A stretch of 64,000 nucleotides of DNA from Escherichia coli (GTDB lineage: Bacteria > Pseudomonadota > Gammaproteobacteria > Enterobacterales > Enterobacteriaceae): the NCBI RefSeq assembly GCF_022846255.1, contig NZ_AP025682.1. One strand, written 5' to 3'. This document shows positions 1 to 46,493 of this stretch, piece after piece (the stretch's first letter is position 1; each line of letters begins with the position of its first letter). The notes under the pieces were generated by a model. It saw nothing but the letters and a program-made list of their open reading frames with translations, made no database searches and had not been told where the DNA came from. Position numbers and translations under genes: made by a program.

Positions 1-708
1 GCGGTAATCACCCGCTTTGGTGTCGCGCCCTTTATCTGCACCCTCGGTATGATGTACGTCGCCCGTGGCTCTGCCCTGCTGTTTAATGATGGCAGCACTT
101 ACCCCAATCTCAACGGCATGGAGGCACTGGGCAACACGGGTTTCGCCACCCTTGGTTCTGGCACGTTTTTAGGCGTTTATTTGCCAATCTGGCTGATGAT
201 TGGCTTTTTGATTTTAGGCTACTGGATCACGACTAAAACGCCGCTCGGTCGTTATATCTATGCCATTGGTGGCAATGAATCTGCCGCGCGACTGGCAGGC
301 GTACCCATCGTAAAAGTCAAAGTGTTCGTCTATGCGTTCTCCGGATTATGCGCCGCATTTGTCGGTTTGATTGTTGCCTCGCAGCTGCAAACCGCTCACC
401 CAATGACCGGCAATATGTTCGAAATGGATGCTATCGGTGCCACGGTTCTTGGTGGAACTGCGCTGGCAGGTGGTCGGGGACGTGTCTCTGGCTCGATTAT
501 CGGTGCCTTTGTCATTGTCTTCCTCGCCGATGGCATGGTGATGATGGGGGTCAGTGATTTCTGGCAAATGGTCATTAAAGGCCTCGTTATCGTCACCGCC
601 GTGGTAGTCGATCAGTTCCAGCAAAAATTGCAAAACAAAGTCATTTTGATGCGTCGCCATGAAGAAAAGATGGCCGCCGCACCTGCCGTAAAACCGCTTT
701 CCAGTTAA
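1..708 (+). CDS. ABC-type sugar transporter permease, C-terminal part (5' end lies outside the window)
   Basis: Frame 1 is open from position 1 to the TAA at 706-708. Hydrophobic TM-rich protein with an RbsC/AraH-family-like C-terminal region. Not present at this position in K-12 as recalled. Confidence 0.7.
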   Translation, partial: AVITRFGVAPFICTLGMMYVARGSALLFNDGSTYPNLNGMEALGNTGFATLGSGTFLGVYLPIWLMIGFLILGYWITTKTPLGRYIYAIGGNESAARLAGVPIVKVKVFVYAFSGLCAAFVGLIVASQLQTAHPMTGNMFEMDAIGATVLGGTALAGGRGRVSGSIIGAFVIVFLADGMVMMGVSDFWQMVIKGLVIVTAVVVDQFQQKLQNKVILMRRHEEKMAAAPAVKPLSS

Positions 709-721
709 TTAACATCATTCC

Positions 722-743
722 GCCGGGCATTAAATTGCCCGGC
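722..743 (+). terminator. GC-rich hairpin between permease and first dehydrogenase (gccgggca-ttaaat-tgcccggc); possible weak terminator or attenuator
   Basis: Perfect 8-bp inverted repeat seen directly; the downstream T-tract is weak (ttataca). Confidence 0.3.
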
Positions 744-761
744 TTATACAGGGGAAAAAAT

Positions 762-1559
762 ATGCAACGTAATTTTCAGGGTAAGACTGTAGTTATTACC
801 GGGGCATGCCGGGGAATTGGGGCCGGGATCGCTGAACGCTTCGCCCGCGATGGCGCAAATCTGGTGATGGTTTCTAACGCTGCACGCGTGCATGAAACTG
901 CTGAGCAACTGCGCCAATGTTATCAGGCTGACATTTTGTCATTAGAAGTCGATGTGACAGATGAAGCGCAAGTACAGGCACTCTATGAACAAGCGGCTGC
1001 ACGTTTTGGCAGCATCGATGTTTCCATTCAGAATGCAGGCATTATCACCATCGATTATTTTGATCGAATGCCGGCTGCTGATTTCGAAAAAGTGCTGGCG
1101 GTGAACACTACGGCAGTCTGGCTCTGCTGCCGGGAAGCAGCCAAATATATGGTGAAACAAAATCACGGCTGCCTGATCAACACCTCTTCTGGCCAGGGAC
1201 GTCAGGGGTTTATCTATACCCCACACTATGCAGCCAGCAAAATGGGTGTGATCGGCATTACGCAAAGCCTGGCGCACGAGTTAGCGCAGTGGAATATCAC
1301 TGTTAACGCCTTCTGCCCTGGTATTATCGAAAGCGAAATGTGGGACTACAACGACCGCGTATGGGGAGAAATTCTCAGTACCGATGACAAGCGTTATGGC
1401 AAAGGCGAGCTTATGGCGGAATGGGTGGAAGGTATTCCGATGAAGCGTGCCGGTAAACCTGAAGATGTTGCCGGACTGGTTGCCTTCCTCGCCTCTGACG
1501 ATGCGCGTTATCTCACCGGTCAAACCATCAACATCGACGGCGGCCTGATTATGTCGTAA
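762..1559 (+). CDS. Short-chain dehydrogenase/reductase, sorbitol-6-phosphate dehydrogenase-like
   Basis: ATG at 762 preceded by a purine-rich RBS (cagggga). Rossmann motif TGACRGIGAG and catalytic Y-x3-K (YAASK). The ORF-track start at 735 lies inside the upstream hairpin and is unlikely. Confidence 0.8.
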   Translation: MQRNFQGKTVVITGACRGIGAGIAERFARDGANLVMVSNAARVHETAEQLRQCYQADILSLEVDVTDEAQVQALYEQAAARFGSIDVSIQNAGIITIDYFDRMPAADFEKVLAVNTTAVWLCCREAAKYMVKQNHGCLINTSSGQGRQGFIYTPHYAASKMGVIGITQSLAHELAQWNITVNAFCPGIIESEMWDYNDRVWGEILSTDDKRYGKGELMAEWVEGIPMKRAGKPEDVAGLVAFLASDDARYLTGQTINIDGGLIMS

Positions 1560-1591
1560 TGCCCCTGCGGGCTACTAAGAGAGATATCAAA

Positions 1592-2377
1592 ATGATCGCA
1601 AAAGATTTTGCTCAACAATTGTTTGATCTCCACGATCGCGTCGCCTTTGTCACTGGCGCAGGTAGCGGTATCGGACAAATGATCGCTCTGGCTTTAGCCA
1701 GCGCAGGCGCACGAGTGGTGTGTTTTGATCTACGGGAAGATGGCGGACTCAAAGAGACGGTTAATCATATCGAAGCACTTGGCGGACAAGCCTTGTATTA
1801 CACGGGCGATGTTCGGGAATTGAGAGATCTTCGCGCAGCAGTCGCTCTGGCAAAAACACATTTTGGTCGTCTGGATATTGCCGTAAACGCCGCTGGAATC
1901 GCTAACGCAAACCCGGCGCTGGAGATGGAAAGCGAGCAATGGCAACGCGTTATCGATATCAACCTGACTGGTGTGTGGAATTCCTGTAAGGCGGAAGCCG
2001 AGTTAATGGTAGAGAACGGAGGCGGCTCGATTATAAATATTGCGTCAATGTCCGGGATTATCGTCAATCGCGGTCTGGAACAGGCTCACTACAACAGCTC
2101 CAAAGCAGGCGTGATTCATTTATCTAAAAGTCTTGCGATGGAATGGGTGAGTAAAGGGATCCGTGTGAACTCAATCAGTCCAGGATATACCGCAACACCA
2201 ATGAATACCCGACCTGAAATGGTGCATCAGACTCGGGAGTTTGAAATCCAGACGCCGATTCAGCGGATGGCGAAAGTGGAAGAGATGGCGGGTCCAGCGC
2301 TGTTCCTTGCCAGCGATGCGGCGTCGTTCTGCACTGGTGTTGATCTGGTGGTCGATGGTGGTTTTGTCTGCTGGTAA
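1592..2377 (+). CDS. Short-chain dehydrogenase/reductase, gluconate 5-dehydrogenase / KduD-like
   Basis: ATG at 1592 with RBS aagagag upstream. Motif TGAGSGIG and catalytic Y-x3-K (YNSSK). The ORF-track start at 1559 overlaps the stop of the upstream gene. Confidence 0.8.
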   Translation: MIAKDFAQQLFDLHDRVAFVTGAGSGIGQMIALALASAGARVVCFDLREDGGLKETVNHIEALGGQALYYTGDVRELRDLRAAVALAKTHFGRLDIAVNAAGIANANPALEMESEQWQRVIDINLTGVWNSCKAEAELMVENGGGSIINIASMSGIIVNRGLEQAHYNSSKAGVIHLSKSLAMEWVSKGIRVNSISPGYTATPMNTRPEMVHQTREFEIQTPIQRMAKVEEMAGPALFLASDAASFCTGVDLVVDGGFVCW

Positions 2378-2486
2378 AAATGGTTTCGCCCGCAGCCATC
2401 ACTGACCGCGGGCGAAAGTGTAAAGCAGGTGCCTTACCACCCTGACCTGACAACCGGATATGCGGGGATTGCTCCCCGCACAACGG

Positions 2487-2639
2487 CTACTTCTTCGGTT
2501 CGTAAGCGAGAACAACCTTAAACTCAATATTACGTTCCTTTACGGTAAACTCACACAGCGAGTCTCCGACCAGAAGCGTAAATCCCAGCACCGTTAAACA
2601 CAGCACTATGACTGCCACAAGGGCATATTTCGTCAGCAT
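2487..2639 (-). CDS. hokE: Hok-family type I toxin (50 aa), copy 1
   Basis: Protein [50 protein letters not shown] matches the Hok/Gef family; single TM helix; cat (ATG on the reverse strand) at 2637-2639. Confidence 0.85.
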
Positions 2640-2739
2640 GTTTATATTGCCTCCATGCGAAGAAGGGACTACCATCCAAATTGTTCAGGTTTGGGTAGGT
2701 AGCCCCAAGGTTGATAGAAATATCGTCCTGGGGCTTCAT
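2551..2739 (-). CDS. mokE: mok (modulator of killing) leader ORF overlapping the hok start, copy 1
   Basis: 62-aa ORF in a different frame overlapping the 5' end of hok, the standard hok/sok architecture; translation not verifiable from sequence. Confidence 0.5.
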
Positions 2740-2990
2740 CTTTCCAGACCTCAGAGTAAACCTGAAACCGGAAAGCTTCAGGCACCCGCAGTTATCTTAC
2801 CCTTCCTTAGCAAAATAGCTGTTTATTTATACAGTGAGTCCTGTTTAGGACTTTTCACCTGTATTATCGCCCATGCCAGTAAAACGAAATCGCCCGCAGC
2901 CATCTCTGACTGCGGGCGAAAGTGTAAAGCAGGTGCCTTACCATCCTGACCTGACAACCGGATATGCGGGGATTACTCCCCGCACAACGG

Positions 2991-3143
2991 CTACTTCTTC
3001 GGTTCGTAAGCGAGAACAGCCTTAAACTCAATATTACGTTCCTTTACGGTAAACTCACACAGCGAGTCTCCGACCAGAAGCGTAAATCCCAGCACCGTTA
3101 AACACAGCACTATGACTGCCACAAGGGCATATTTCGTCAGCAT
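2991..3143 (-). CDS. hokE: Hok-family type I toxin (50 aa), copy 2
   Basis: Same as copy 1 except Val to Ala at residue 42 (EFKAV); this version matches the K-12 HokE sequence as recalled. Confidence 0.85.
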
Positions 3144-3243
3144 GTTTATATTGCCTCCATGCGAAGAAGGGACTACCATCCAAATTGTTCAGGTTTGGGT
3201 AGGTAGCCCCAGGGTTGATAGAAATATCGTCCTGGGGCTTCAT
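3055..3243 (-). CDS. mokE: mok leader ORF, copy 2
   Basis: Overlapping ORF as in copy 1, with a Leu to Pro difference at residue 11. Confidence 0.5.
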
Positions 3244-3579
3244 CTTTCCAGACCTCAGAGTAAACCTGAAACCGGAAAGCTTCAGGCACCCGCAGTTATC
3301 TTACCCTTCCTTAGCAAAATAGCTGTTTATTTATACAGTGAGTCCTGTTTCGGACTTCTCATTTAATCAACTGAAGCTGAACCCGTTTTTTTCTGCATGC
3401 CTCAATCGTCAAAATTCTTCGCCGCCAGCCAGCTCTGCCATAACTTGTCACATTGCAAAAGTAGCCAAATTGCTTCAGTCACAATCAGTTCTCCATCACC
3501 AAAAAAAGAAACATTCCAGAACTTCCGCATCTCACCCAGCCGCTCCCACTTCTATACTGAATAGAAAACGCCAACATAA

Positions 3580-4707
<1,128 letters not shown>

Positions 4708-4772
4708 GTCGGGAATTGCCTTACAGAAGAATATCCCTGACAATGGTGTTTTAACTTACATTTAACAATGTT

Positions 4773-5021
4773 ATGAAACACCCTTTAGAAACCTTGACCA
4801 CCGCAGCAGGCATTTTGCTGATGGCTTTCCTCTCTTGCCTGCTGCTGCCCGCCCCCGCACTGGGGCTGACGCTGGCACAAAAACTGGTGACCACGTTCCA
4901 TCTGATGGATCTTAGCCAGCTTTACACGTTATTGTTTTGTCTGTGGTTTTTAGTGCTGGGCGCTATTGAGTATTTTGTTCTACGCTTTATCTGGCGACGC
5001 TGGTTCTCGCTGGCGGATTAA
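4773..5021 (+). CDS. ybdJ: Small inner-membrane protein YbdJ
   Basis: 82-aa product with two hydrophobic segments; conserved position between ybdK and ybdF. Confidence 0.8.
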
Positions 5022-5085
5022 ACGTCGATTATCGCCGAACTTCGCGGCATACTTTGCTTATTCTCCTTCGCCTAAAGGAACATTT

Positions 5086-5469
5086 ATGGATAAGCAATCA
5101 CTGCACGAAACGGCGAAACGCCTGGCTCTTGAGTTACCCTTTGTCGAGCTTTGCTGGCCTTTTGGCCCGGAGTTCGATGTTTTTAAAATTGGCGGCAAGA
5201 TTTTTATGCTGTCGTCGGAGCTGCGCGGCGTCCCCTTTATCAATCTGAAGTCCGATCCACAAAAATCCCTGCTAAATCAGCAAATATACCCAAGCATCAA
5301 GCCAGGGTATCACATGAATAAAAAGCACTGGATTTCGGTGTATCCCGGCGAGGAAATCTCCGAAGCGTTACTTCGCGATCTGATCAACGATTCGTGGAAT
5401 CTGGTGGTTGATGGTCTGGCTAAACGCGATCAAAAACGACTGCGTCCTGACTCAACCGTAAATCAATAG
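5086..5469 (+). CDS. ybdF: MmcQ/YjbR-family protein YbdF
   Basis: ATG at 5086 preceded by RBS aaagga. The ORF-track start at 4966 would overlap ybdJ and is rejected. Confidence 0.85.
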
Positions 5470-5547
5470 CGCATTTTTCTCGCTTACCATTTCATCTCGA
5501 TCCTTGTAATCTGCTGGCACGCAAAATTACTTTCACATGGAGTCTTT

Positions 5548-6201
5548 ATGGATATCATTTCTGTCGCCTTAAAGCGTCATTCCACTAAGGCATTTGATGC
5601 CAGCAAAAAACTTACCCCGGAACAGGCCGAGCAGATCAAAACTCTACTGCAATACAGCCCATCCAGCACCAACTCCCAGCCGTGGCATTTTATTGTTGCC
5701 AGCACGGAAGAAGGTAAAGCGCGTGTTGCCAAATCCGCTGCCGATAATTACGTGTTCAACGAGCGTAAAATGCTTGATGCCTCGCACGTCGTGGTGTTCT
5801 GTGCAAAAACCGCGATGGACGATGCCTGGCTAAAGCTGGTTGTTGACCAGGAAGATGCCGATGGCCGCTTTGCCACGCCGGAAGCGAAAGCCGCGAACGA
5901 TAAAGGTCGCAAGTTCTTCGCCGATATGCACCGTAAAGATCTGCATGATGATGCAGAGTGGATGGCAAAACAGGTTTATCTCAACGTCGGTAACTTCCTG
6001 CTGGGCGTGGCGGCGCTGGGTCTGGACGCGGTGCCCATCGAAGGTTTTGACGCCGCCATCCTCGATGAAGAATTTGGTCTGAAAGAGAAAGGCTACACCA
6101 GTCTGGTGGTTGTTCCGGTGGGTCATCACAGCGTTGAAGATTTTAACGCTACGCTGCCGAAATCTCGTCTGCCGCAAAACATTACCTTAACCGAAGTGTA
6201 A
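5548..6201 (+). CDS. nfsB: Oxygen-insensitive NAD(P)H nitroreductase NfsB
   Basis: 217-aa product matches NfsB ([17 protein letters not shown]...). Confidence 0.95.
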
Positions 6202-6210
6202 TTCTCCCTT

Positions 6211-6233
6211 GCCGGGCATCTGCCCGGCTATTT
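6211..6233 (+). terminator. Hairpin after nfsB (gccgggca-tc-tgcccggc followed by tattt)
   Basis: Inverted repeat 10 bp after the nfsB stop with a short T-run. Confidence 0.4.
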
Positions 6234-6260
6234 CCCCTCAGATTCTCCTGATTTGCATAA

Positions 6261-7556
<1,296 letters not shown>

Positions 7557-7565
7557 TTAAAAAAA

Positions 7566-7597
7566 CCGCTCTCATCGAATGGATGAGAGCGGCTTTC
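7566..7597. terminator. Bidirectional hairpin terminator between convergent ybdG and pheP
   Basis: 11-bp stem ccgctctcatc / gatgagagcgg, flanked by an A-run on one side and ttt on the other. Confidence 0.55.
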
Positions 7598-7613
7598 AGA
7601 TTGTTGACATCAT

Positions 7614-7695
<82 letters not shown>

Positions 7696-7713
7696 AATCA
7701 GCCTCACATCAGC

Positions 7714-9096
7714 TTAATTCACTTTCCTACGCAATGTTTTAAACGCCACAAACAGGAACACAATCCACACCGGCAGCAGAATCGCTGACAGGCGCATATC
7801 ATCCATCGTGCACATCAGCAGCAAAATCATGCCGAGGAAGGCGATGCAAAGATAGTTGCCGAACGGATAGAGCAGCGCCTTAAATTGTGTTTCACGCCCC
7901 TGACGTCGCATCGCCGCGCGAAAACGCAGATGCGCCAGGCAGATCATAATCCAGTTCAACAGCAGCGTTGCTACCACCAGCGCCATCAGCAGACCAAACG
8001 CTTTTTGCGGCAGCAGATAGTTGATTAACACCACCAGCGAAGTGATCGCTCCGGAAAGCATCAGCGAGTTAATCGGCACGCCGCGACGGCTGACGCGAGT
8101 CAAAAACTTTGGCGCATTACCCTGCACAGAAAGGCCAAACAGCATGCGGCTGTTAGAGTAAACCCCGCTGTTATACACCGACAGCGATGCCACCAGAATG
8201 ACGAAGTTCAGCGCAGAAGCCACCACGTTGCTGTCGAGATTATGGAAAATCATCACAAACGGGCTACTGTTGGATTTCACTTCCACCCACGGGTAGAGCG
8301 CCAGTAAAACCACCAGTGAACCGATATAAAACAGCAGGATGCGATACACCACCTGATTCACTGCTTTAGGGATGCTTTTTTCCGGATCGCGCGCTTCAGC
8401 CGCAGTAATCCCAATCAGCTCCAGACCGCCGAAGGAGAACATAATTACCGCCAGCGACAAAATCAGTCCATTCCAGCCGGTGGCAAAGAAACCGCCATAG
8501 CGCCAGAGGTTATCGATACTGGCTTTCTCACCGCCGTGCCCAGAAAACAGCAGCCACAGACCAAAGCCGATCATACCGATGATCGCCAGCACTTTAATCA
8601 GCGCAAACCAGAACTCGGTTTCGCCATATAAGCGCACGTTCACCAGGTTAACGGCGTTGATGATAATAAAGAAGGCGGCAGCCCAAATCCACGTTGGAAC
8701 ATCCGGGAACCAGTACTGCATATAGATGCCCGCAGCGGTCAGCTCTGCCATTCCCACCAGCACGAACATTACCCAGTAGTTCCAGCCAGAGAGGAAGCCC
8801 GCAAACGGTCCCCAGTATTTATAGGCAAAGTGGGCAAATGAACCGGATACCGGCTCTTCGACCACCATCTCGCCGAGCTGGCGCATAATCAGGAAAGCGA
8901 TGATCCCGGCGACGCCGTAGCCCAGCAATACAGCCGGACCCGCCATCTGAATCGCCGGGCCAATGCCAAGAAACAGACCAGTACCAATTGCGCCACCCAG
9001 CGCAATCAGTTGAATATGACGGTTATGTAATCCGCGATGAAGCGTCGGCTCTTGATTCGACGCAGTATCTTCCGATACGGTTGACGCGTTTTTCAC
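7714..9096 (-). CDS. pheP: Phenylalanine-specific permease PheP (APC family)
   Basis: Matches PheP. Start placed at the GTG giving MKNASTVSEDT...; the ORF track extends 12 codons further upstream. Start uncertain by a few codons. Confidence 0.9.
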   Translation of the reverse strand: MKNASTVSEDTASNQEPTLHRGLHNRHIQLIALGGAIGTGLFLGIGPAIQMAGPAVLLGYGVAGIIAFLIMRQLGEMVVEEPVSGSFAHFAYKYWGPFAGFLSGWNYWVMFVLVGMAELTAAGIYMQYWFPDVPTWIWAAAFFIIINAVNLVNVRLYGETEFWFALIKVLAIIGMIGFGLWLLFSGHGGEKASIDNLWRYGGFFATGWNGLILSLAVIMFSFGGLELIGITAAEARDPEKSIPKAVNQVVYRILLFYIGSLVVLLALYPWVEVKSNSSPFVMIFHNLDSNVVASALNFVILVASLSVYNSGVYSNSRMLFGLSVQGNAPKFLTRVSRRGVPINSLMLSGAITSLVVLINYLLPQKAFGLLMALVVATLLLNWIMICLAHLRFRAAMRRQGRETQFKALLYPFGNYLCIAFLGMILLLMCTMDDMRLSAILLPVWIVFLFVAFKTLRRKVN

Positions 9097-9197
9097 GCCT
9101 TTCCCCTGTGTGTCTTTTTTGTTGAGGGGCACCTTTTAACATTTAGTGCCCATCGTCGCAAGACACAATCCACACGGTTAAACGGGGTATCCTGCTT

Positions 9198-12100
9198 TTA
9201 TTTCCGTACCCGATGTCGGTGCAGCCACATCAGCTTATACGCCGCCGGGATAATAAACAGCGACAGCAAAGGCGCGGTGATCATGCCGCCAATCATCGGC
9301 GCGGCAATCCGGCTCATCACCTCTGACCCTGCTCCTGTTCCCCACAGAATCGGCAGCAGACCAGCGATAATCACCGCCACCGTCATCGCTTTTGGGCGCA
9401 CGCGCAGTACCGCGCCGTGATATAACGCCTCATCCAGCTTCTGCTCGCTGAATGTTTGCGGATTATTCAACGACGGCTCGGCCTCTATGGCGTGACGTAA
9501 ATACATCAGCATCACCACGCCAAATTCGGCGGCGACCCCGGCAAGGGCAATAAAACCGGTGCCCGTCGCCACGGAAAGATGAAAGCCCATCCACCACAGC
9601 AACCAGATGCCGCCCACCAGCGCAAACGGTACGCTGCTGATAATCAGCAACGCTTCGCCCACCCGACGGAACGCCAGATACAACAGCACGAAGATGATCA
9701 TCAGCGTCATCGGCACCATCAGTTTCAGCTTATGGTTGGCGCGCTCCAGTAGCTCGAACTGCCCGGAGAATGCCACGCTAGTGCCCGGTTTTAACTGCAC
9801 TTTTTCAGCTATCGCTTTTTGCAGATCGTGAACCACCGACACCATGTCACGATCGCGGGCATCGATATAAATCCAGCTCGTCGGGCGCGCATTCTCGGTT
9901 TTCAGCATCGACGGTCCGGTAGAGACTTTAACGTCGGCCACGTCCGCCAGAGTGATTTGCTGCTTCATCGGCGTGAGGATCGGCAACTGGCGCAGTGCCT
10001 GCGGGCTATCGCGCCAGCTTTGCGGATAACGCAGATTAATTGGATAACGAGCAATCCCTTCCACCGTTTCGCCAACCATCGCCCCGCCCACCGCAGAAGT
10101 CACAAACAACTGCACATCCGCCACCGTCATACCGTAACGCGCGGCTTTTTCACGGTTAATCTCAACGTTGATATAGCGCCCACCTTCCAGACGCTCAGCA
10201 AGCGCAGAAGCCACGCCTGGCACCGTTCGCGCCACTTCTTCAATTTGCTCCGCCATCGTGTCGATATCCGCCAGCACAGTGCCGGAAACTTTAATGCCGA
10301 TAGGGCTTTTAATGCCAGTCGAGAGCATATCGATACGGTTACGAATTGGCGGCACCCACAGATTCGCCAGCCCCGGCAGACGCACGGTGTTATCCAGTTC
10401 CTCAATGATTTTGTCCATCGTCATGCCAGGCCGCCACTGATCCTGCGGCTTAAGCTGGATAGTCGTTTCTACCATCTCCAGTGGAGCAGAATCGGTGGCG
10501 GTTTCCGCTTTCCCGGTTTTGCCAAATACCCGCGCCACTTCAGGTACGCTCATAATCAGCTTGTCGGTTTTTTGCAGCATACTCGCCGCCTCCGCTGCGG
10601 AAATCCCCGGCAGCGTCGATGGCATATACAACAAGTCGCCTTCATTGATCTGCGGTAAAAATTCCCCGCCCACTTTATTGAGCGGCCAGAGAACCGTCAG
10701 CACCGAAAGCGCTGCCACCAACAGCGTGGTTTTCGGCCAGTGCAGTACTTTCAGCAACAGCGGATGATAAACACGAATCAAAAAGCGATTGAGCGGGTTA
10801 CTGCTTTCTGGCGGAATTTTGCCACGGATCCAGTAGCCCATCAGGATCGGGATCACTACAATCGCCAGTAGCGCCGCGCCCGCCATCGCATAGGTTTTGG
10901 TGAACGCCAGCGGGCCAAACAGACGACCTTCCTGCCCTTCCAGGGTGAAGATCGGGATAAACGACAGCGTGATAATCAGCAGACTGATAAACAGCGCCGG
11001 CCCCACTTCAACAGATGCATCGGTGATCACCTGCCAGCGCGTTTTATTATCCAGCGTGGCGTCAGGATGCTGGTGCTGCCACTCTTCCAGCCGTTTATGC
11101 GCATTCTCGATCATGACGATAGCGGCATCGACCATCGCCCCGACGGCAATCGCAATGCCACCCAACGACATAATATTGGCGTTCAGTCCCTGAAAGTGCA
11201 TGACAATAAAAGCAATACACAACCCCAGCGGCAACGAAATAATCGCCACCAGCGCCGAGCGCACATGCCAGAGAAACAGCGCACAGACTACCGCCACCAC
11301 AATAAACTCTTCCAGCAACTTGCCGCTGAGGTTGTCAATGGCGCGGTCAATGAGCTGGCTGCGATCGTATGTTGTAACTATCTCCACGCCTTCCGGCAGA
11401 CTGCTTTTCAGCGTTTCCAGTTTGTCCTTCACGGCGGCGATTACTTCTCGGGCGTTTTTGCCGGAGCGCAGGATCACCACCCCGCCCGCCACTTCGCCTT
11501 CGCCGTTCAGTTCGGCAATGCCCCGGCGCATCTCCGGGCCAATCTGGACCTTCGCAACATCACGCAGATAAACGGGCACGCCATTTTCACTGGCTTTTAA
11601 AACGATGTGATTAAAGTCGTCGAGCGTTTGCAGATAGCCGCTGGCTCGCACCATATATTCCGCTTCCGCCAGTTCGATCGACGAACCACCCGCTTCCTGG
11701 TTTGAAGCATCCAGCGCGCTTTTTACTTCGGCGAGACTGATGCCATATTGCGCCAGGCGCTGAGGATCGATAACCACCTGATACTCTTTCACCACACCGC
11801 CTACCGACGCCACTTCCGCAACGTCAGGAATGGTTTTCAGCTCATATTTGAGAAACCAGTCCTGCAATGAGCGTAAATCGGCAAGATCGTGCTTACCGCT
11901 GCGATCCACCAGTGCATATTCATAGATCCAGCCAACACCCGTGGCATCTGGCCCCAGCTCGGCGCTGACTCCCGCAGGCAGCTTACCCTGTACCTGGTTG
12001 AGGTACTCCAGCACCCGCGAGCGCGCCCAGTACGGATCGGTGCCATCTTCGAAAATGACATACACATAAGAGTCGCCAAACTGCGAGAAACCGCGCACAG

Positions 12101-12341
12101 TCTTCGCGCCAGGCACCGACAACATGGTGGTGGTTAGCGGATAAGTCACCTGATTTTCAACGATTTGCGGTGCCTGACCGGGATAGCTGGTTTTAATAAT
12201 CACCTGCACATCAGAGAGATCCGGCAGTGCATCCACTGGCGTGTTAATGATGGTCCAGGTGCCCCAGATACTCAGAAACAACGCGCCCATCAGCACCAGA
12301 AAACGGTTCGCCACCGAGCGACGAATAATCCATTCAATCAT
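9198..12341 (-). CDS. cusA: RND copper/silver efflux pump CusA
   Basis: 1047-aa RND transporter; start [16 protein letters not shown]. Confidence 0.95.
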
Positions 12342-12352
12342 TGGTTATTCCC

Positions 12353-13576
12353 TCAATGCGCATGGGTAGCACTTTCAGAGCGCATCCGCTCCAGTGCGCC
12401 AGAAATATTGGCTTCGGAATCAATCAGGAACAGGCCGCTGGAAACCACCTTTTCACCTTCCGCCAGACCAGAGCGTAATGCGGTGACGCCTTGCGATGCC
12501 TGGAAAACGGCAACGCGTTTCGGTACAAAGCGCCCGTCGGCATCAACGGTAATCACCCGCTGTTCGCTGCCGGTATCAATCAGCGCTTGTGACGGAATGA
12601 GCAGCATCGGTTCGCTGGCGGTGTTGAGTTGCAACCAGGCGTTCATTCCCGGCTTTAGCGCCTCGTCGGTGTTGTCGACTTCCAGGCGCAGCTGCAGCGT
12701 GCGGGTTGCGGCATCCACGCCGGGTAGCAGCGTCCATTTGCGGATGGTGAGTGTTTTATCAGGTCGTGCCGGAACGGTGAGCGTAAACTGCGAGGCATCT
12801 TTCACCAGCCAGGCGATGGACTCCGGGATCGCGGCAGTGATCCACACCGGGTCCATACCCTGAATTTTCGCGACCACGTTATCTTTGGCGATATTCATTC
12901 CCGCGCGCAGATCAAACGCGGTGATCACGCCATCAATGGGCGATTTGAGCGTAAAGCGAGTCTGGATTTTTTGCGTGGCGATCAGGCGGCGAATATCCGC
13001 CTCCGGCATTCCCGCCAGTCGCAGTCGCTCAAGAATGCCTTCAGTCTGGGTCGCCGTACCGCCGGTTTCGCGCAGCAGTAAATACTCACTCTGCGCTTCC
13101 ACCCAGTCGGGAATGGTCAGGTCGAGAAGCGGCGCGCCCTTTTGCACTTTATCGCCCACGGTAAGCGGATACACCTTGTCGATAAACCCGGCGGCGCGGG
13201 CCTGCACAATGGCATACTGATACTCGTTGTAACTGACATTCGCCGGGAAACTCTGGGAAAAAGTCAGCGGCCCGCGCGTGACGGTCGCCGTTTTCACCCC
13301 CAGATTCTGCGTCTGAGTCGGGTCAATGCGCACACCAGACGCAGAACTCTCTTCATCGGCATATTTCGGCACCAGATCCATATCCATAAACGGCGATTTC
13401 CCTGGTTTATCGAACCGCGTATTGGGATACATCGGGTCGTACCAGAATAAGACTTTACGTTCTGCGGTCGACGTTTTTTCTGCGGGCGGTTCCTCCTTTG
13501 CAAACCAGGTAAAACCTGCCGCAGAAATAATACCGCCCGCGATCATGCTGCCGATAATAAGCGCGATTTTTTTCAT
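12353..13576 (-). CDS. cusB: Periplasmic adaptor (membrane fusion protein) CusB
   Basis: 407-aa product immediately upstream of cusA. Confidence 0.95.
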   Translation of the reverse strand: MKKIALIIGSMIAGGIISAAGFTWFAKEEPPAEKTSTAERKVLFWYDPMYPNTRFDKPGKSPFMDMDLVPKYADEESSASGVRIDPTQTQNLGVKTATVTRGPLTFSQSFPANVSYNEYQYAIVQARAAGFIDKVYPLTVGDKVQKGAPLLDLTIPDWVEAQSEYLLLRETGGTATQTEGILERLRLAGMPEADIRRLIATQKIQTRFTLKSPIDGVITAFDLRAGMNIAKDNVVAKIQGMDPVWITAAIPESIAWLVKDASQFTLTVPARPDKTLTIRKWTLLPGVDAATRTLQLRLEVDNTDEALKPGMNAWLQLNTASEPMLLIPSQALIDTGSEQRVITVDADGRFVPKRVAVFQASQGVTALRSGLAEGEKVVSSGLFLIDSEANISGALERMRSESATHAH

Positions 13577-13591
13577 CTCATTAAACCTGGG

Positions 13592-13924
13592 TTACTGGCT
13601 GACTTTAATATCCTGTAATAAAGAAAGGCTGCCCTGCTGGACAAAATTAAACGCCACTTTGTCGCCGGTTTTAATTTCGCTCATTTTCGTCTGCGGGGTG
13701 ATGGTAAAGCGCATAGTCATCTCCGGCCAGTTCACGGCAGCAATCGGATCGTGATGGATGGTGATTTTTTTGCTTTCCAGATCAACACCTTTTACCACCC
13801 CAGTGGCGCTAATAACCTGTGGTTGTGCTTCGCTCATGGTTTCATGATGATGTTCGTTAGCCTGGGCATTAAAGCCAATAACGGTAAACAGACTAAACAT
13901 TGCGACTTGCAGTGCTTTTTTCAT
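13592..13924 (-). CDS. cusF: Periplasmic copper chaperone CusF
   Basis: 110 aa with signal peptide and His/Met-rich metal-binding region. Confidence 0.95.
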   Translation of the reverse strand: MKKALQVAMFSLFTVIGFNAQANEHHHETMSEAQPQVISATGVVKGVDLESKKITIHHDPIAAVNWPEMTMRFTITPQTKMSEIKTGDKVAFNFVQQGSLSLLQDIKVSQ

Positions 13925-13947
13925 TTATTCTCTCCTGGAGTTAAAAA

Positions 13948-15330
13948 TTATTGCTGCCAACCGCCCCCTAAGGCGGTATATAAAGAAATTTCGTTAACCT
14001 GACGGGCATAATTCAGGTCAAGTAAAGTTTGTCGGGTTGCAAATAAAGAACGCTCGGCATCCAGCACTTCCAGATAACTTACCGCGCCGTGCTGATATAA
14101 TGCCCGCGCCCGTTGCAAAGTAATTTGCAGCGACGCAAGATAACGCTGCTGGGCGCTGATTTGATCGTTCAGGCTTTGACGTAATGCCAGCGCATCTGCC
14201 ACTTCTTTAAAGGCGTTCTGGATTTTCTGTTCATAATTCACCACCGACTGCTGCTGGCGAATTTCGGCGATATCCAGATTGGCCTGGTTGCGTCCAGCAT
14301 TAAAAATGGGGATCTCAATTTTAGGAATAAAATTCCACATCCCGCTGCTGGCATTAAATAATGACGACAGATCGCTGCTGGCGGTTGATATTCCGCTGGT
14401 CAGGCTGATAGACGGGAAAAATGCCGCACGCGCAGCACCAATATTGGCATTAGCCGCCATTAACGCGTGTTCAGCTTCCATAATATCAGGGCGCTGCAAT
14501 AAGATTTGCGACGACAAGCCCGCCGGTAATTTAACGCTTTGCAGGCTGTCGCTGTTTACTGTCTGCGCTTGCGGCAGCTTGCCGTAGCTTCCCAATAACA
14601 GTTGCAATGCATTATTTGCCTGCGCCAGTTCCCCCTGACGTTTAGCGATGTCGCTGCGGGTACTTTCTATCACCCCGCGAGCCTGTTCCAGCGCCAGAAC
14701 ATTGCTGCTACCGGTCAACAGTTGTTTTTCGACAAACGCATATGACTGCTGATAATTACGCAGCGTTTCTTCGGCTATTTGCAATTGCGCATACGCCAGT
14801 TGCTGATTGAAATAGCTTTGCGCGACATTAGAAACCAGCAAAATATGCACCGCGCGCTGAGCTTCCTCAGTGGCTAAATAATTTTGGCGCTCGGCTTCGC
14901 TCATGTTCTTTAAGCGCCCGAAAAAATCGAGATCAAAGCTGGCGTTAAGGCCAGTCGAGAACTCCCGCGTCGTGGCTGAATCGCCTTTAAGATTGCCGCT
15001 CCAGCTGCCGCTGCCCTCGCCATTGAGCTGTGGGTAGCGGTCGGCATCGGTCAGACGATATTGCGCCCGCGCTTCCTGCACTTTCAGCGCCGCCATGCGC
15101 AAATCCCGGTTATTCACCAACGCCTCGCTAATCAGCGTCTTCACCTGATTATCAACAAAAAAGGTGCGCCAGCCTGCGTTCTGGTAGTTATCTGCTGCGT
15201 TAACCAGGCCGTTCTGGCTGAGTGAGAACTGCTGAGGAACGGGCATTGCCGGACGCTGATAATCCGGTGCCAGTGAACAACCGGTTAGCGCAAGGGCCAC
15301 ACAAAATGGCAGAAGTTTACAAGGAGACAT
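13948..15330 (-). CDS. cusC: Outer-membrane efflux lipoprotein CusC
   Basis: 460-aa ORF with a lipobox (LTGC) and OMF/TolC-family repeats; exact start not verified. Confidence 0.93.
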   Translation of the reverse strand: MSPCKLLPFCVALALTGCSLAPDYQRPAMPVPQQFSLSQNGLVNAADNYQNAGWRTFFVDNQVKTLISEALVNNRDLRMAALKVQEARAQYRLTDADRYPQLNGEGSGSWSGNLKGDSATTREFSTGLNASFDLDFFGRLKNMSEAERQNYLATEEAQRAVHILLVSNVAQSYFNQQLAYAQLQIAEETLRNYQQSYAFVEKQLLTGSSNVLALEQARGVIESTRSDIAKRQGELAQANNALQLLLGSYGKLPQAQTVNSDSLQSVKLPAGLSSQILLQRPDIMEAEHALMAANANIGAARAAFFPSISLTSGISTASSDLSSLFNASSGMWNFIPKIEIPIFNAGRNQANLDIAEIRQQQSVVNYEQKIQNAFKEVADALALRQSLNDQISAQQRYLASLQITLQRARALYQHGAVSYLEVLDAERSLFATRQTLLDLNYARQVNEISLYTALGGGWQQ

Positions 15331-15399
15331 AGGCTCATAATTTCTGGTGATTTTATGCTGCCAACTTTACTCGCCAGGCTCTGATTTTCCGGTGACAGG

Positions 15400-15421
15400 A
15401 AAATGACAAAATTGTCATTTT
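15400..15421. promoter_or_regulatory. CusR box: perfect 22-bp palindrome AAAATGACAAAATTGTCATTTT in the cusC-cusR divergent promoter region
   Basis: Palindrome seen directly; matches the described CusR operator between cusC and cusR. Confidence 0.85.
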
Positions 15422-15486
15422 GCCAATAAGCGATTGCCATCTGATCCCGCTACTCTAGAATTGCCCGGGCAACATGCGGAGGAAAT

Positions 15487-16170
15487 ATGAAACTGTTGAT
15501 TGTCGAAGATGAAAAGAAAACCGGAGAATACTTGACCAAAGGGTTAACCGAAGCCGGTTTTGTGGTCGATTTGGCCGACAACGGGCTGAATGGCTACCAT
15601 CTGGCGATGACCGGTGATTATGATCTGATAATCCTCGATATTATGCTGCCGGACGTGAACGGCTGGGATATCGTGCGCATGTTGCGTTCCGCCAATAAGG
15701 GGATGCCGATTCTGTTGCTTACCGCGCTTGGCACCATTGAACATCGCGTCAAGGGGCTGGAGTTGGGGGCGGATGACTATCTGGTGAAGCCGTTCGCTTT
15801 TGCTGAACTGCTGGCGCGGGTGCGCACTCTACTGCGGCGCGGGGCGGCGGTGATTATCGAAAGTCAGTTTCAGGTTGCCGATCTGATGGTCGATCTCGTC
15901 AGCCGCAAAGTCACCCGCAGCGGCACGCGCATCACTCTGACCAGTAAAGAATTTACTCTGCTGGAGTTTTTCCTCCGCCATCAGGGCGAAGTGCTGCCCC
16001 GCTCGCTTATCGCCTCGCAGGTATGGGACATGAATTTTGACAGCGATACCAACGCCATTGATGTGGCGGTGAAGCGGCTGCGCGGCAAAATCGACAACGA
16101 CTTTGAGCCAAAGTTGATTCAGACCGTGCGCGGCGTGGGTTACATGCTAGAGGTGCCGGATGGTCAGTAA
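15487..16170 (+). CDS. cusR: Response regulator CusR (OmpR family)
   Basis: 227 aa with receiver and winged-helix domains. Confidence 0.95.
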
Positions 16171-17602
16171 GCCATTTCAGCGCCCGTTTTCGCTGGCAAC
16201 CCGCCTGACCTTTTTTATCAGCCTCGCCACCATCGCGGCGTTTTTCGCCTTTGCATGGATCATGATCCACTCGGTAAAAGTGCATTTTGCCGAGCAGGAT
16301 ATTAATGATTTAAAGGAGATTAGCGCCACCCTTGAACGGGTACTTAATCACCCTGACGAAACGCAAGCCCGACGCTTAATGACGCTGGAAGATATCGTCA
16401 GTGGTTATTCCAATGTGTTGATCTCCCTGGCAAATAGCCACGGTAAAACGGTGTATCACTCCCCAGGTGCGCCGGATATCCGCGAGTTTACGCGTGACGC
16501 CATACCCGATAAAGACGCGCAGGCTGGCGAGGTGTATCTCCTTTCCGGCCCGACGATGATGATGCCAGGGCACGGTCACGGGCATATGGAACACAGCAAC
16601 TGGCGGATGATTAACTTGCCGGTTGGCCCGCTGGTTGACGGCAAACCGATTTATACGCTCTACATCGCGCTTTCGATCGATTTTCATCTTCATTACATCA
16701 ATGATTTGATGAATAAACTTATTATGACCGCATCGGTAATCAGCATCCTGATCGTCTTTATCGTGCTGTTGGCGGTATATAAAGGTCATGCGCCGATCCG
16801 CAGCGTCAGCCGTCAAATCCAGAATATCACCTCGAAAGATCTCGACGTTCGCCTTGACCCGCAGACCGTGCCCATTGAGCTGGAACAGCTGGTACTGTCG
16901 TTCAACCATATGATCGAGCGTATTGAGGATGTCTTTACCCGCCAGTCCAATTTCTCAGCGGATATAGCCCACGAAATTCGCACACCTATTACTAATCTCA
17001 TTACGCAAACGGAAATCGCCCTCAGCCAGTCGCGCAGCCAGAAGGAGCTGGAAGATGTGCTCTACTCTAATCTCGAAGAGCTGACGCGAATGGCGAAAAT
17101 GGTCAGCGATATGCTGTTTCTTGCTCAGGCCGATAACAACCAGCTAATCCCCGAAAAGAAAATGCTCAACCTGGCGGATGAAGTCGGCAAAGTGTTCGAT
17201 TTTTTCGAGGCGTTAGCAGAAGATCGCTGCGTGGAGCTGCGGTTTGTTGGCGACGAGTGTCAGGTTGCGGGCGATCCGCTGATGCTGCGTCGGGCGTTAA
17301 GCAACCTGCTTTCTAATGCCCTGCGTTATACGCCAACCGGAGAGACAATTGTCGTGCGCTGCCAGACGGTCGATCACCTGGTGCAAGTTACCGTCGAAAA
17401 CCCCGGTACGCCCATTGCGCCCGAACACTTACCGCGATTGTTTGACCGTTTCTACCGCATTGATCCTTCCCGCCAGCGAAAAGGCGAAGGTAGCGGCATT
17501 GGTCTGGCGATAGTGAAATCGATTGTTGTCGCGCATAAAGGCACTGTTACAGTAACGTCAGATGCACGGGGGACAAGGTTTGTTATCATATTACCCGCTT
17601 AA
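16160..17602 (+). CDS. cusS: Sensor histidine kinase CusS
   Basis: 480 aa; overlaps the cusR stop by 11 nt; HAMP and HisKA/HATPase motifs. Confidence 0.95.
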
Positions 17603-17751
17603 TCCTTCAGCAAACGGCAACTTTTATAACCAGTGTAAAAATAACATGCCGCAATAGTAATACCTATTAATGATAAAAAGCTGTCACAATTCATAAAAAA
17701 CCTTAATATACGCCACCCTAAACATAACCAGCGTTAATGTAAGGTTTTTGT

Positions 17752-38123: not shown

Positions 38124-38310
38124 GCCGGATGCGGCGTGAACGCCTTATCCGGCCTACCGTTCCAACACCGCCTGTAGGCCTGATAAGATGCGCCAGCATC
38201 GCATCAGGCATGGTGTGCCGATTGCCGCATGCGGCGTGAACGCCTTATCCGGCCTACCGTTCCAACACCGACTGTAGGCCTGATAAGACGCGCCAGCATC
38301 GCATCAGGCT
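38124..38310. repeat. BIME: two tandem units of about 101 bp, each an inverted REP pair
   Basis: gcc(g/a)(g/c)atgcggcgtgaacgccttatccggcctac ... ctgtaggcctgataaga(t/c)gcgccagcatcgcatcaggc occurs twice in direct repeat. Confidence 0.85.
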
Positions 38311-46410: not shown

Positions 46411-46452
46411 GTCATACCACTCGCCTGATTATTTTTAGCTATGTTGGATTTT

Positions 46453-46479
46453 GCCACGGTTTATACCGTGGCTTTTTTT
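46453..46479 (+). terminator. Rho-independent terminator after allE
   Basis: gccacggt-ttat-accgtggc followed by ttttttt. Confidence 0.7.
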
Positions 46480-46493
46480 GTAGTCAATTCAGG

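Follow-up and report, generated by a model that had tools for sequence, protein, structure and literature searches.

The 64,000-nucleotide stretch of Escherichia coli DNA analysed here (the window) opens with part of a sugar-type ABC permease gene followed by two adjacent SDR genes (SDR1 and SDR2), which raises the question of which catabolic system these genes belong to and what a pair of dehydrogenases contributes to it. An earlier note had read the three genes, ending at position 2386, as one end of a catabolic island peculiar to certain strains, with the rest lying to the left of the window. This reading is borne out by contigs identical to the window and by annotated genomes: the 3' part of the permease gene and both SDR genes are present and intact where the note had placed them, and the window's first 2.4 kb form the right end of a D-apiose utilisation island of 11.1 kb and ten genes. 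The full interpretation, in which positions 1-2384 are the distal end of a chromosomal D-apiose island working by the transketolase route (MetaCyc PWY-8089) with the SDR mechanism proposed below, is in our judgement probable.

The island lies between entD and hokE in annotated genomes. Its left part consists of aptB and aptA, which encode a split transketolase and are transcribed leftward; the eight genes that follow are transcribed rightward and encode a regulator of the SorC type, a kinase of the FGGY family, a periplasmic binding protein, a DUF2291 protein, the ATPase and permease of an ABC transporter, and finally SDR1 and SDR2. The contigs that are 100% identical to window positions 1-2734 (L089-L091) hold nine of these genes whole, with aptB cut by the contig edge; what looks in L089 like 190 bp inserted between the aptA and regulator genes is a scaffolding run of N and not real. 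Based on blastn against the island-less strain MS20657 and K-12, the right border falls at 2384/2385, 7 bp past the SDR2 stop codon and very near the end point given in the earlier note, and homology to island-less strains begins at 2385. The equivalent locus of MG1655 reads ybdK-sokE-hokE-IS186B-entD, and this synteny comparison confirms the K-12 arrangement given in the note (IS186 followed by entD). Genome comparison indicates that the island is absent from K-12 and from island-less B2 strains, and that its insertion replaced 128 bp, among them the 3' end of entD. The same genes were thus not found in K-12, nor did the dehydrogenases prove unrelated to sugars, the two outcomes that the note had named as counting against it. 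The cargo comprises ten metabolic genes and nothing else; no integrase or transposase, tRNA target, flanking direct repeats or deviant composition was found for the island. Its GC content is 49.4% against 52.5% in the flanks, and no signal of foreign origin was seen in this compositional comparison. Homology to other genera is largely confined to the gene module.

The features of the window's left edge are collected in Table 1. Frame 1 of the permease segment is free of stops over 235 aa, matches PF02653 (BPD_transp_2) with an E value of 7.8e-30, and is collinear with the annotated permease of E. coli MCJCHV-1 (355 aa) over residues 121-355. In the RbsC and AraH models of NCBIfam the fragment covers the C-terminal two-thirds, with scores below cut-off, and the full-length protein reaches 273 bits against an equivalog cut-off of 398 bits in these best-scoring named models. 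The island permease therefore shares the membrane-domain family of RbsC and AraH but is a paralogous transporter component with its own binding protein and DUF2291 partner. Relative to the ST1193 allele, the window's island genes show 26 nucleotide differences and a single amino-acid change, from which it follows that the genes are real and that the SDRs are under strong purifying selection.

Table 1 Features at the left edge of the window, with positions counted from its first nucleotide
Feature	Position	Strand	Details
ABC permease, 3' part (ribose/arabinose-type, PF02653)	1..708	+	708 nt, 235/355 codons plus stop
SDR1, 265-aa classical SDR	762..1559	+	PF13561 and PF00106, intact motifs
SDR2, 261-aa classical SDR, NAD-type motif	1592..2377	+	PF13561 and PF00106, intact motifs
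Divergent patch within SDR2	1999..2362	+	18 substitutions/364 bp (4.9%), 17 synonymous
GC-rich hairpin at right island border	2384..2417	-	Terminator scan; recurs at 2890-2919
Two tandem hokE/sokE units, context outside the island	2385..3361	-	2385-2857 and 2890-3361, 32-bp filler between

This cluster has already been identified, and the remark in the earlier note on an unknown substrate no longer holds. A D-apiose degradation cluster of Escherichia was described by Royer et al. (J Bacteriol 2026; PMC13001218) in STc131, STc14 and some E. fergusonii, where it lies between the enterobactin genes and cusS; the authors cite Carter et al. 2018 (Nat Chem Biol) as the source of the apiose-cluster prediction. 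The published cluster sits at this very locus (enterobactin genes to hokE/ybdK), and its ten genes agree in content and order with those found here, the last two encoding putative oxidoreductases; the window allele differs from it by the divergent patch in SDR2 and by belonging to a lineage absent from complete genomes. Cluster-positive E. coli and E. fergusonii grew on 10 mM apiose and K-12 did not, the evidence being a correlation of cluster presence or absence with growth in five strains versus K-12 (PMC13001218). The same study noted that apsI is missing from the cluster and hypothesised that the two oxidoreductases are its functional replacement.

The reference system is the D-apiose transketolase pathway of Pectobacterium (MetaCyc PWY-8089; Carter et al. 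2018 as cited in PMC13001218), which employs ApsI, AplK and AptA/AptB. Common to both clusters are a SorC-type regulator, a split transketolase, a kinase of the FGGY family and an ABC transporter of the ribose type accompanied by DUF2291. The adjacent genes for AptA and AptB lie outside the window, on L089-L091 and in L001, and their products are 78% and 71% identical, respectively, to the Pectobacterium pair. The E. coli island differs in having two SDRs and no ApsI, the Pectobacterium isomerase built as a xylose-isomerase-like TIM barrel (PF01261); none of the island genes encodes a member of PF01261 or PF02952. The kinase and the binding protein are each only about 44% identical to their Pectobacterium counterparts, so that orthology does not guarantee the substrate transported or phosphorylated. 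This leaves room for a reading in which the main substrate is another small polyol or sugar (erythritol, apiitol or another tetrose or pentose derivative), the SDRs serve as polyol entry dehydrogenases, and growth on apiose stems from a side activity or from other genes. Consistent with it, the binding protein is publicly labelled 'D-ribose' by NCBI and 'erythritol transport system substrate-binding protein' by one source, the kinase resembles glycerol kinase (E 8e-148, below cut-off), and the published growth link holds at the level of the cluster and not of the gene (PMC13001218). We nevertheless regard this reading as quite unlikely, as the island holds only a kinase of the Brucella-type erythritol genes, AptAB show the 78% and 71% identity to the Pectobacterium apiose-cluster pair given above, cluster presence tracks growth on apiose, and E. 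coli-type kinases also occur beside AptAB together with FucI-like isomerases. The closest PDB match to the island binding protein is that of R. etli (5IBQ/4RY0, E 2.6e-79), of which 5IBQ is presumably an apiose complex.

Both window dehydrogenases, publicly labelled only 'SDR family oxidoreductase', match Pfam PF13561 and PF00106 with E values of about 1e-55 to 1e-66, and both display the hallmarks of classical SDRs, namely a TGxxxGxG cofactor motif, the catalytic Ser, YxxxK and a length of about 250-270 aa. SDR1 carries TGACRGIG, LVMVSNAAR (without the NAD-type Asp), NTSSG and YAASK, while SDR2 carries TGAGSGIG, the NAD-type VVCFDLRED, NIASMSG and YNSSK. The SDR1 motif suggests NADP(H) as cofactor; this residue is not conserved, with Asp at the same site in some orthologues. 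The likeness to sorbitol-6-phosphate dehydrogenase (SDR1) and to gluconate 5-dehydrogenase and KduD (SDR2) put forward in the earlier note amounts to generic SDR resemblance, with all three models below their curated cut-offs: SDR1 scored 189.6 bits against the sorbitol-6-phosphate dehydrogenase model NF009050 (cut-off 307), ranking 11th among generic SDR matches, and SDR2 scored 209.7 bits against gluconate 5-dehydrogenase NF006070 (cut-off 279) and 191.7 bits against KduD TIGR01832 (cut-off 338.85). All top NCBIfam matches of SDR1 (FabG, glucose 1-dehydrogenase, butanediol dehydrogenase and sorbitol-6-P dehydrogenase) fell below cut-off, and the sole equivalog passed by SDR2 is the function-less PRK06114 (506.5 bits, cut-off 360). 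A PDB sequence search with both SDRs returned generic relatives (best E 5.5e-53 and 1.4e-46) and no structure with a defining substrate; the solved structures nearest SDR2 include galactitol dehydrogenase (2wdz) and a putative polyol dehydrogenase (3awd).

Glucose 1-dehydrogenase-type SDRs are among the top family matches of both proteins. One of the two could be an apiose 1-dehydrogenase starting the oxidative route of other bacteria, from apiose through apionolactone to apionate. We consider this highly improbable, given that the glucose 1-dehydrogenase subfamily model is marginal for SDR2 and below cut-off for SDR1, that the island is without a lactonase, an oxidoisomerase, an acid-sugar kinase or a RuBisCO-like enzyme, and that its kinase and transketolase need a ketose phosphate.

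Support for replacement of the isomerase by the SDR pair comes from gene co-occurrence in 62 complete AptAB+kinase loci. The SDR1+SDR2 pair occurs without an isomerase in 19 of these, an isomerase, either FucI-like (PF02952) or xylose-isomerase-like (PF01261), occurs without the pair in 27/62, and the two coincide in one of the 62, a locus with two AptAB sets. A further 11/62 loci combine an SDR1 orthologue with a distant second SDR and no isomerase. The alternation of pair and isomerase is near-exclusive (Fisher p = 6.6e-6, ignoring shared ancestry) and lends support to the published idea of the pair as a substitute for the apiose isomerase; this result is new here, whereas the cluster itself has been published. 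Three related clusters (L018, L022 and L086) have neither the pair nor an isomerase, indicating that the conversion step can be encoded elsewhere. Orthologues of SDR1 with 51-93% identity lie within AptAB clusters of Klebsiella, Pseudomonas, Marinomonas and Trueperaceae (62% in Rhizobium), and those of SDR2 with 63-92% identity adjoin AptAB across many genera. Klebsiella has the identical ten-gene order in another chromosomal context, and in Pseudomonas, Marinomonas and Trueperaceae both orthologues accompany AptAB in rearranged clusters with other kinases and transporters. A Rhizobium plasmid cluster encodes an SDR2 homologue (67% identical) and also tpiA, which fits a transketolase step linked to DHAP and G3P.

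Based on these comparisons, we propose that D-apiose would be imported by the ABC system that includes the window permease, and that SDR1 and SDR2 would jointly perform the aldose-to-ketose conversion carried out by ApsI in Pectobacterium. The likeliest route would have the C1 aldehyde of apiose reduced to give D-apiitol, and C2 then oxidised with NAD+ to give apulose. Apulose would be converted to apulose-4-phosphate by the FGGY kinase, and AptA/AptB would move its C1-C2 glycolaldehyde unit onto glyceraldehyde-3-phosphate, forming xylulose-5-phosphate and dihydroxyacetone phosphate. A two-step oxidoreductive conversion of aldose to ketose is known from fungal xylose reductase and xylitol dehydrogenase; the proposed route shares with it the sequence of aldose, polyol and C2 oxidation to the ketose before phosphorylation, but both island enzymes, with putative activities, are SDRs and not an aldo-keto reductase and a medium-chain dehydrogenase. 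With D-apiitol, a polyol, as the likely intermediate, the suggestion of a polyol or sugar-acid substrate in the earlier note was a fair hint in its polyol part, while the candidates it listed (sorbitol, galactitol, gluconate and idonate) are not supported. We lean towards SDR1 as the reductase and SDR2 as an NAD+-dependent apiitol 2-dehydrogenase, although this assignment of steps may be reversed because the SDR1 motif suggests NADP(H) and the catalogued apiose reductase uses NADH. It also speaks against the proposed route that SDR enzymes oxidise an aldose at C1 to a lactone more commonly than they reduce an aldehyde.

The other redox order, in which the C2 hydroxyl is oxidised first to a 2-keto-aldehyde (osone) and the C1 aldehyde is then reduced to apulose, with no free apiitol, would account equally well for why two SDRs are needed and why they alternate with isomerases; one NAD-type and one possibly NADP-type site would suit oxidation followed by reduction. 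However, osones are reactive and uncommon as bacterial intermediates, and D-apiose reductase (EC 1.1.1.114), the enzyme of the apiitol reaction, was reportedly purified by Neal and Kindel in 1970 from apiose-grown Aerobacter (Klebsiella) aerogenes, a species that has orthologues of the kinase and SDR2. The interconversion of D-apiose and NADH with D-apiitol is also catalogued (KEGG R03577; PMC1686944), and on these grounds we consider the osone order unlikely. A literature search on apulose transketolase, DUF2291 or apiose reductase found no publications. Whether the pair acts more generally as a dedicated redox bypass from D-apiose through D-apiitol to apulose, repeatedly displacing two unrelated isomerase families from Alphaproteobacteria to Enterobacteriaceae, is a proposal to which we give about an even chance. 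If true, it would supply gene identities for the long-orphan D-apiose reductase and for apiitol 2-dehydrogenase, and would predict apiitol as an extra growth substrate of pandemic ST131 and ST1193 E. coli.

The island is carried by 628 of 5,426 complete E. coli genomes and marks the pandemic ExPEC lineages ST131 and ST1193/ST14, to which it opens up a sugar of plant pectin in the gut; the possible benefit for colonisation has already been published. Given the generic public labels of its proteins, correct functional annotation would make for better metabolic models of both E. coli and Klebsiella. The window allele shares 98.0-98.9% nucleotide identity with the ST131 and ST1193 versions and comes from a lineage that has no member among the complete genomes. 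The SDR2 patch, probably a small recombination tract, is present in none of the 628 island-carrying complete genomes, with a best identity of 95.4% in each. Over the stretch from ybdK to pheP (3589-9000), the backbone matches island-less strains at 99.9% identity.

A promoter and terminator scan of positions 1-3700 gave no more sites than shuffled sequence, and the border hairpin and its counterpart, which lies in the second hok copy, are alone convincing because they recur. The border hairpin carries its T-run on the minus strand and is thus a hok-side terminator; given its position 7 bp after the SDR2 stop, it may also end the island operon. A link between the hokE duplication and the island was considered and rejected, as the same tandem duplication, with the same 32-bp filler, occurs in the island-less strains MP1 and Trh52, and an origin of the filler as a remnant of the native entD end was likewise rejected on comparison. 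Rfam sok matches fall at 2631-2787 and 3135-3291.

In K-12 MG1655 the gene order is ybdK-sokE-hokE-IS186B-entD, in line with the earlier note, and in E. coli MCJCHV-1 a ten-gene block lies between entD and hokE, the three genes at the left end of the window being its last three. The window therefore opens, as that note had proposed, on the edge of a strain-specific catabolic island whose remainder lies to the left, the block being absent from MS20657, in which entD directly adjoins hokE. In MCJCHV-1 the two genes of a split transketolase (aptB-like, then aptA-like) stand at the left end and are read leftward. The other eight are read rightward and encode, in order, a sugar-binding regulator of SorC/DeoR type, an FGGY kinase, a binding protein of ribose type, DUF2291, the ATPase and the permease of the ABC transporter, and two short-chain dehydrogenases (SDR1 and SDR2). 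No mobility genes are among the ten. Comparison with MS20657 places it at 7280-18384 of the MCJCHV-1 locus L001 (11,105 bp), where it replaces 128 bp including the last ~109 bp of entD, so that EntD is 219 aa with a different C-terminus in island-bearing strains and 206 aa otherwise. The replaced entD end corresponds to L001 7280-7427 versus 13173-13281 of the island-less locus L003, and the stop codons of aptB and entD are 1 bp apart. In the window the right border falls at 2384/2385, 7 bp past the SDR2 stop, and is abutted by a GC-rich hairpin of the hok flank. GC content is 49.4% in the island and 52.5% in its flanks.

The window was extended leftward by proxy, using contigs that encode its exact SDR2 protein. 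These comprised a draft E. coli contig (GCA_005387665.1) together with metagenome and Logan contigs, all 100% identical to the window across 2,414-2,734 bases. On three of them (L089-L091) the nine other genes of the island are found in unchanged order, the contig edge truncating aptB, and the rest of the island is thus present in the window's lineage.

Features of the window, with profile matches (bit score, curated cut-off in brackets)
Feature	Position	Size	Evidence or remark
ABC permease gene, 3' part	1-708	235 residues, frame 1 open	PF02653 (branched-chain/ribose-type), E 7.8e-30
SDR1	762-1559	265 aa	PF00106 and PF13561; glycine-rich and Ser/YxxxK motifs complete; sorbitol-6-phosphate dehydrogenase 189.6 (307)
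SDR2	1592-2377	261 aa	PF00106 and PF13561; glycine-rich and Ser/YxxxK motifs complete; gluconate 5-dehydrogenase 209.7 (279); KduD 191.7 (338.85); PRK06114, which carries no function, 506.5 (360)
hokE/sokE, first copy	2385-2857		tandem duplication
Filler between copies	2858-2889	32 bp	matches neither flank
hokE/sokE, second copy	2890-3361		tandem duplication
Segment in ybdG-pheP gap	7646-7723	~77 bp	alignment break
tRNA	24831-24904 (-)		Rfam
naRNA4	38177-38254 (-)		Rfam
STnc480	46417-46483 (-)		Rfam
naRNA4	59520-59597 (-)		Rfam

Against the RbsC and AraH models the permease residues align with the C-terminal two-thirds, at scores well under the curated cut-offs. Likewise, the sorbitol-6-phosphate dehydrogenase label given earlier to SDR1 and the gluconate 5-dehydrogenase/KduD label given to SDR2 do not amount to family membership, all three scores being below cut-off. 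The intergenic gaps (53 bp between permease and SDR1, 32 bp between SDR1 and SDR2) suggest that both dehydrogenases are co-transcribed with the transporter genes.

Based on gene content alone (split transketolase, FGGY kinase, DUF2291-type transporter and two SDRs) D-apiose was guessed as the substrate, and this guess is confirmed by Royer et al. 2026 (PMC13001218), who identify the cluster downstream of the enterobactin genes as a D-apiose degradation cluster (MetaCyc PWY-8089). They report that nearly every STc131 and STc14 genome has it, as do a few other B2 sequence types and about a quarter of E. fergusonii; cluster-positive strains grew on 10 mM apiose and K-12 did not, and the authors call for further biochemical work on the additional enzymes (PMC13001218). 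The island is therefore already published, and the first reading of it was correct save that the substrate, then called unknown, is now known. The database names of the binding protein ('erythritol' or 'D-ribose') and the 44% identity of kinase and binding protein to their Pectobacterium versions would suggest another main substrate, but the orthology of AptAB and the growth on apiose argue against it.

In the simplest chemistry for the island, apiose would first be reduced at C1, giving D-apiitol, whose only secondary alcohol (C2) would then be oxidised to give apulose; phosphorylation to apulose-4-phosphate and transketolase cleavage would yield xylulose-5-phosphate and DHAP. The enzyme for the first of these steps (EC 1.1.1.114) was reportedly purified from apiose-grown Aerobacter aerogenes. 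An oxidative route through apionate is excluded, since the island lacks any downstream genes for it. In SDR2 and all its orthologues strand beta-2 ends in the Asp of NAD-type sites (VVCFDLRED in SDR2), and galactitol and polyol dehydrogenases are among the closest relatives of SDR2 with a solved structure. E. coli SDR1 has Ser at this position, accompanied by Arg residues of the kind usual in NADP(H) sites (TGACRGIG, VMVSNAAR), but some SDR1 orthologues have Asp there. On these motifs and relatives we lean, with low confidence, towards SDR1 as putative reductase and SDR2 as putative apiitol dehydrogenase; the catalogued reduction of apiose to apiitol (KEGG R03577) uses NADH, however, and the roles could be reversed.

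A scan with a kinase alignment, limited to one genome per species, yielded 80 loci, which were classified from blastp comparisons with the E. coli proteins and, for unassigned genes, from Pfam. Counting was confined to the 62 loci that have both AptAB and the kinase and extend 5 kb or more to either side. The SDR pair occurred without an isomerase in 19 of these, and an isomerase occurred without the pair in 27, resembling either L-fucose isomerase (PF02952) or xylose isomerase (PF01261, the type present in Pectobacterium). Both were present in a single locus, an SDR1 orthologue with a distant second SDR and no isomerase in 11, and neither pair nor isomerase in four, including L047 with a frameshifted FucI-like gene. 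Pair and isomerase are nearly mutually exclusive (Fisher p = 6.6e-6, with no correction for phylogeny), a pattern to be expected if a redox route of two enzymes had displaced the isomerase non-orthologously. An osone route, in which the SDR pair would oxidise C2 first, fits the genomics equally well.

The pair is conserved as a unit while the surrounding genes shuffle. All ten genes recur in the same order in Klebsiella, elsewhere on the chromosome, and in Pseudomonas, Marinomonas and a Trueperaceae MAG the pair is combined with other kinase and transporter types. On plasmid pRCCGE532c of Rhizobium sp. CCGE532 (L095 1941-12370) a regulator, kinase, split transketolase and ABC transporter without DUF2291 are followed by SDR2 (67%), tpiA and SDR1 (62%); the triose-phosphate isomerase encoded by tpiA fits a transketolase step that consumes glyceraldehyde-3-phosphate and releases dihydroxyacetone phosphate.

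Other cluster types were also observed. Many AptAB-kinase clusters (Phytobacter, Kosakonia, Yersinia, Necropsobacter, Bryobacteraceae and others) encode a 470-aa PF02952 protein (L019 8547-9965, L064 11483-12901, L051 16663-18075), a second isomerase type at the same pathway position, unrelated to the xylose-isomerase-like type of Pectobacterium. A variant in Erwinia, Pantoea, Dickeya, Brenneria and Serratia (L033-L039, L041, L059) has a binding protein (72-89%), permease, kinase (61-66%) and SDR1 (78-87%) closely orthologous to those of E. coli, combined with a distant transketolase (~45% identity) and a second SDR ~33% identical to SDR2. The one locus with both pair and FucI-like isomerase (Vibrio salinus, L030) has two AptAB sets and looks like two pathway versions side by side.

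Among 5,426 complete E. coli genomes, 628 have a match to window positions 1-2400, in every case a single chromosomal copy at 98.0-98.9% identity. Relative to the ST1193-type allele the three genes differ at 26 nucleotides with one amino-acid change (SDR2 S219I), which indicates purifying selection. Eighteen of these differences, almost all synonymous, cluster at 1999-2362 in the 3' third of SDR2 (4.9% divergence). Its substitutions are absent from all 628 island-bearing genomes, none of which exceeds 95.4% identity over the patch, and a small recombination event with an unsampled donor is its probable origin. Immediately right of the island, 3589-9000 (ybdK to pheP) is 99.9% identical to several island-less B2 strains, whereas elsewhere the window consists of ordinary backbone reaching only 98.7-99.0% to the best of the complete genomes, which places the source strain in a lineage that is poorly sampled and mosaic beside the island. 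The backbone at 12000-60000 includes cus, nfrAB, sfm fimbriae, cysS and allantoin/gcl genes.

The hokE/sokE unit bordering the island is tandemly duplicated, with two full sok RNAs (Rfam), and the exact junction recurs in 102 of the 5,426 complete genomes. Since the same duplication and filler occur in the island-less strains MP1 and Trh52, it is independent of the apiose island. The segment in the ybdG-pheP gap, which may be a REP-type element, is shared by the window and MS20657, and both MCJCHV-1 and K-12 lack it.
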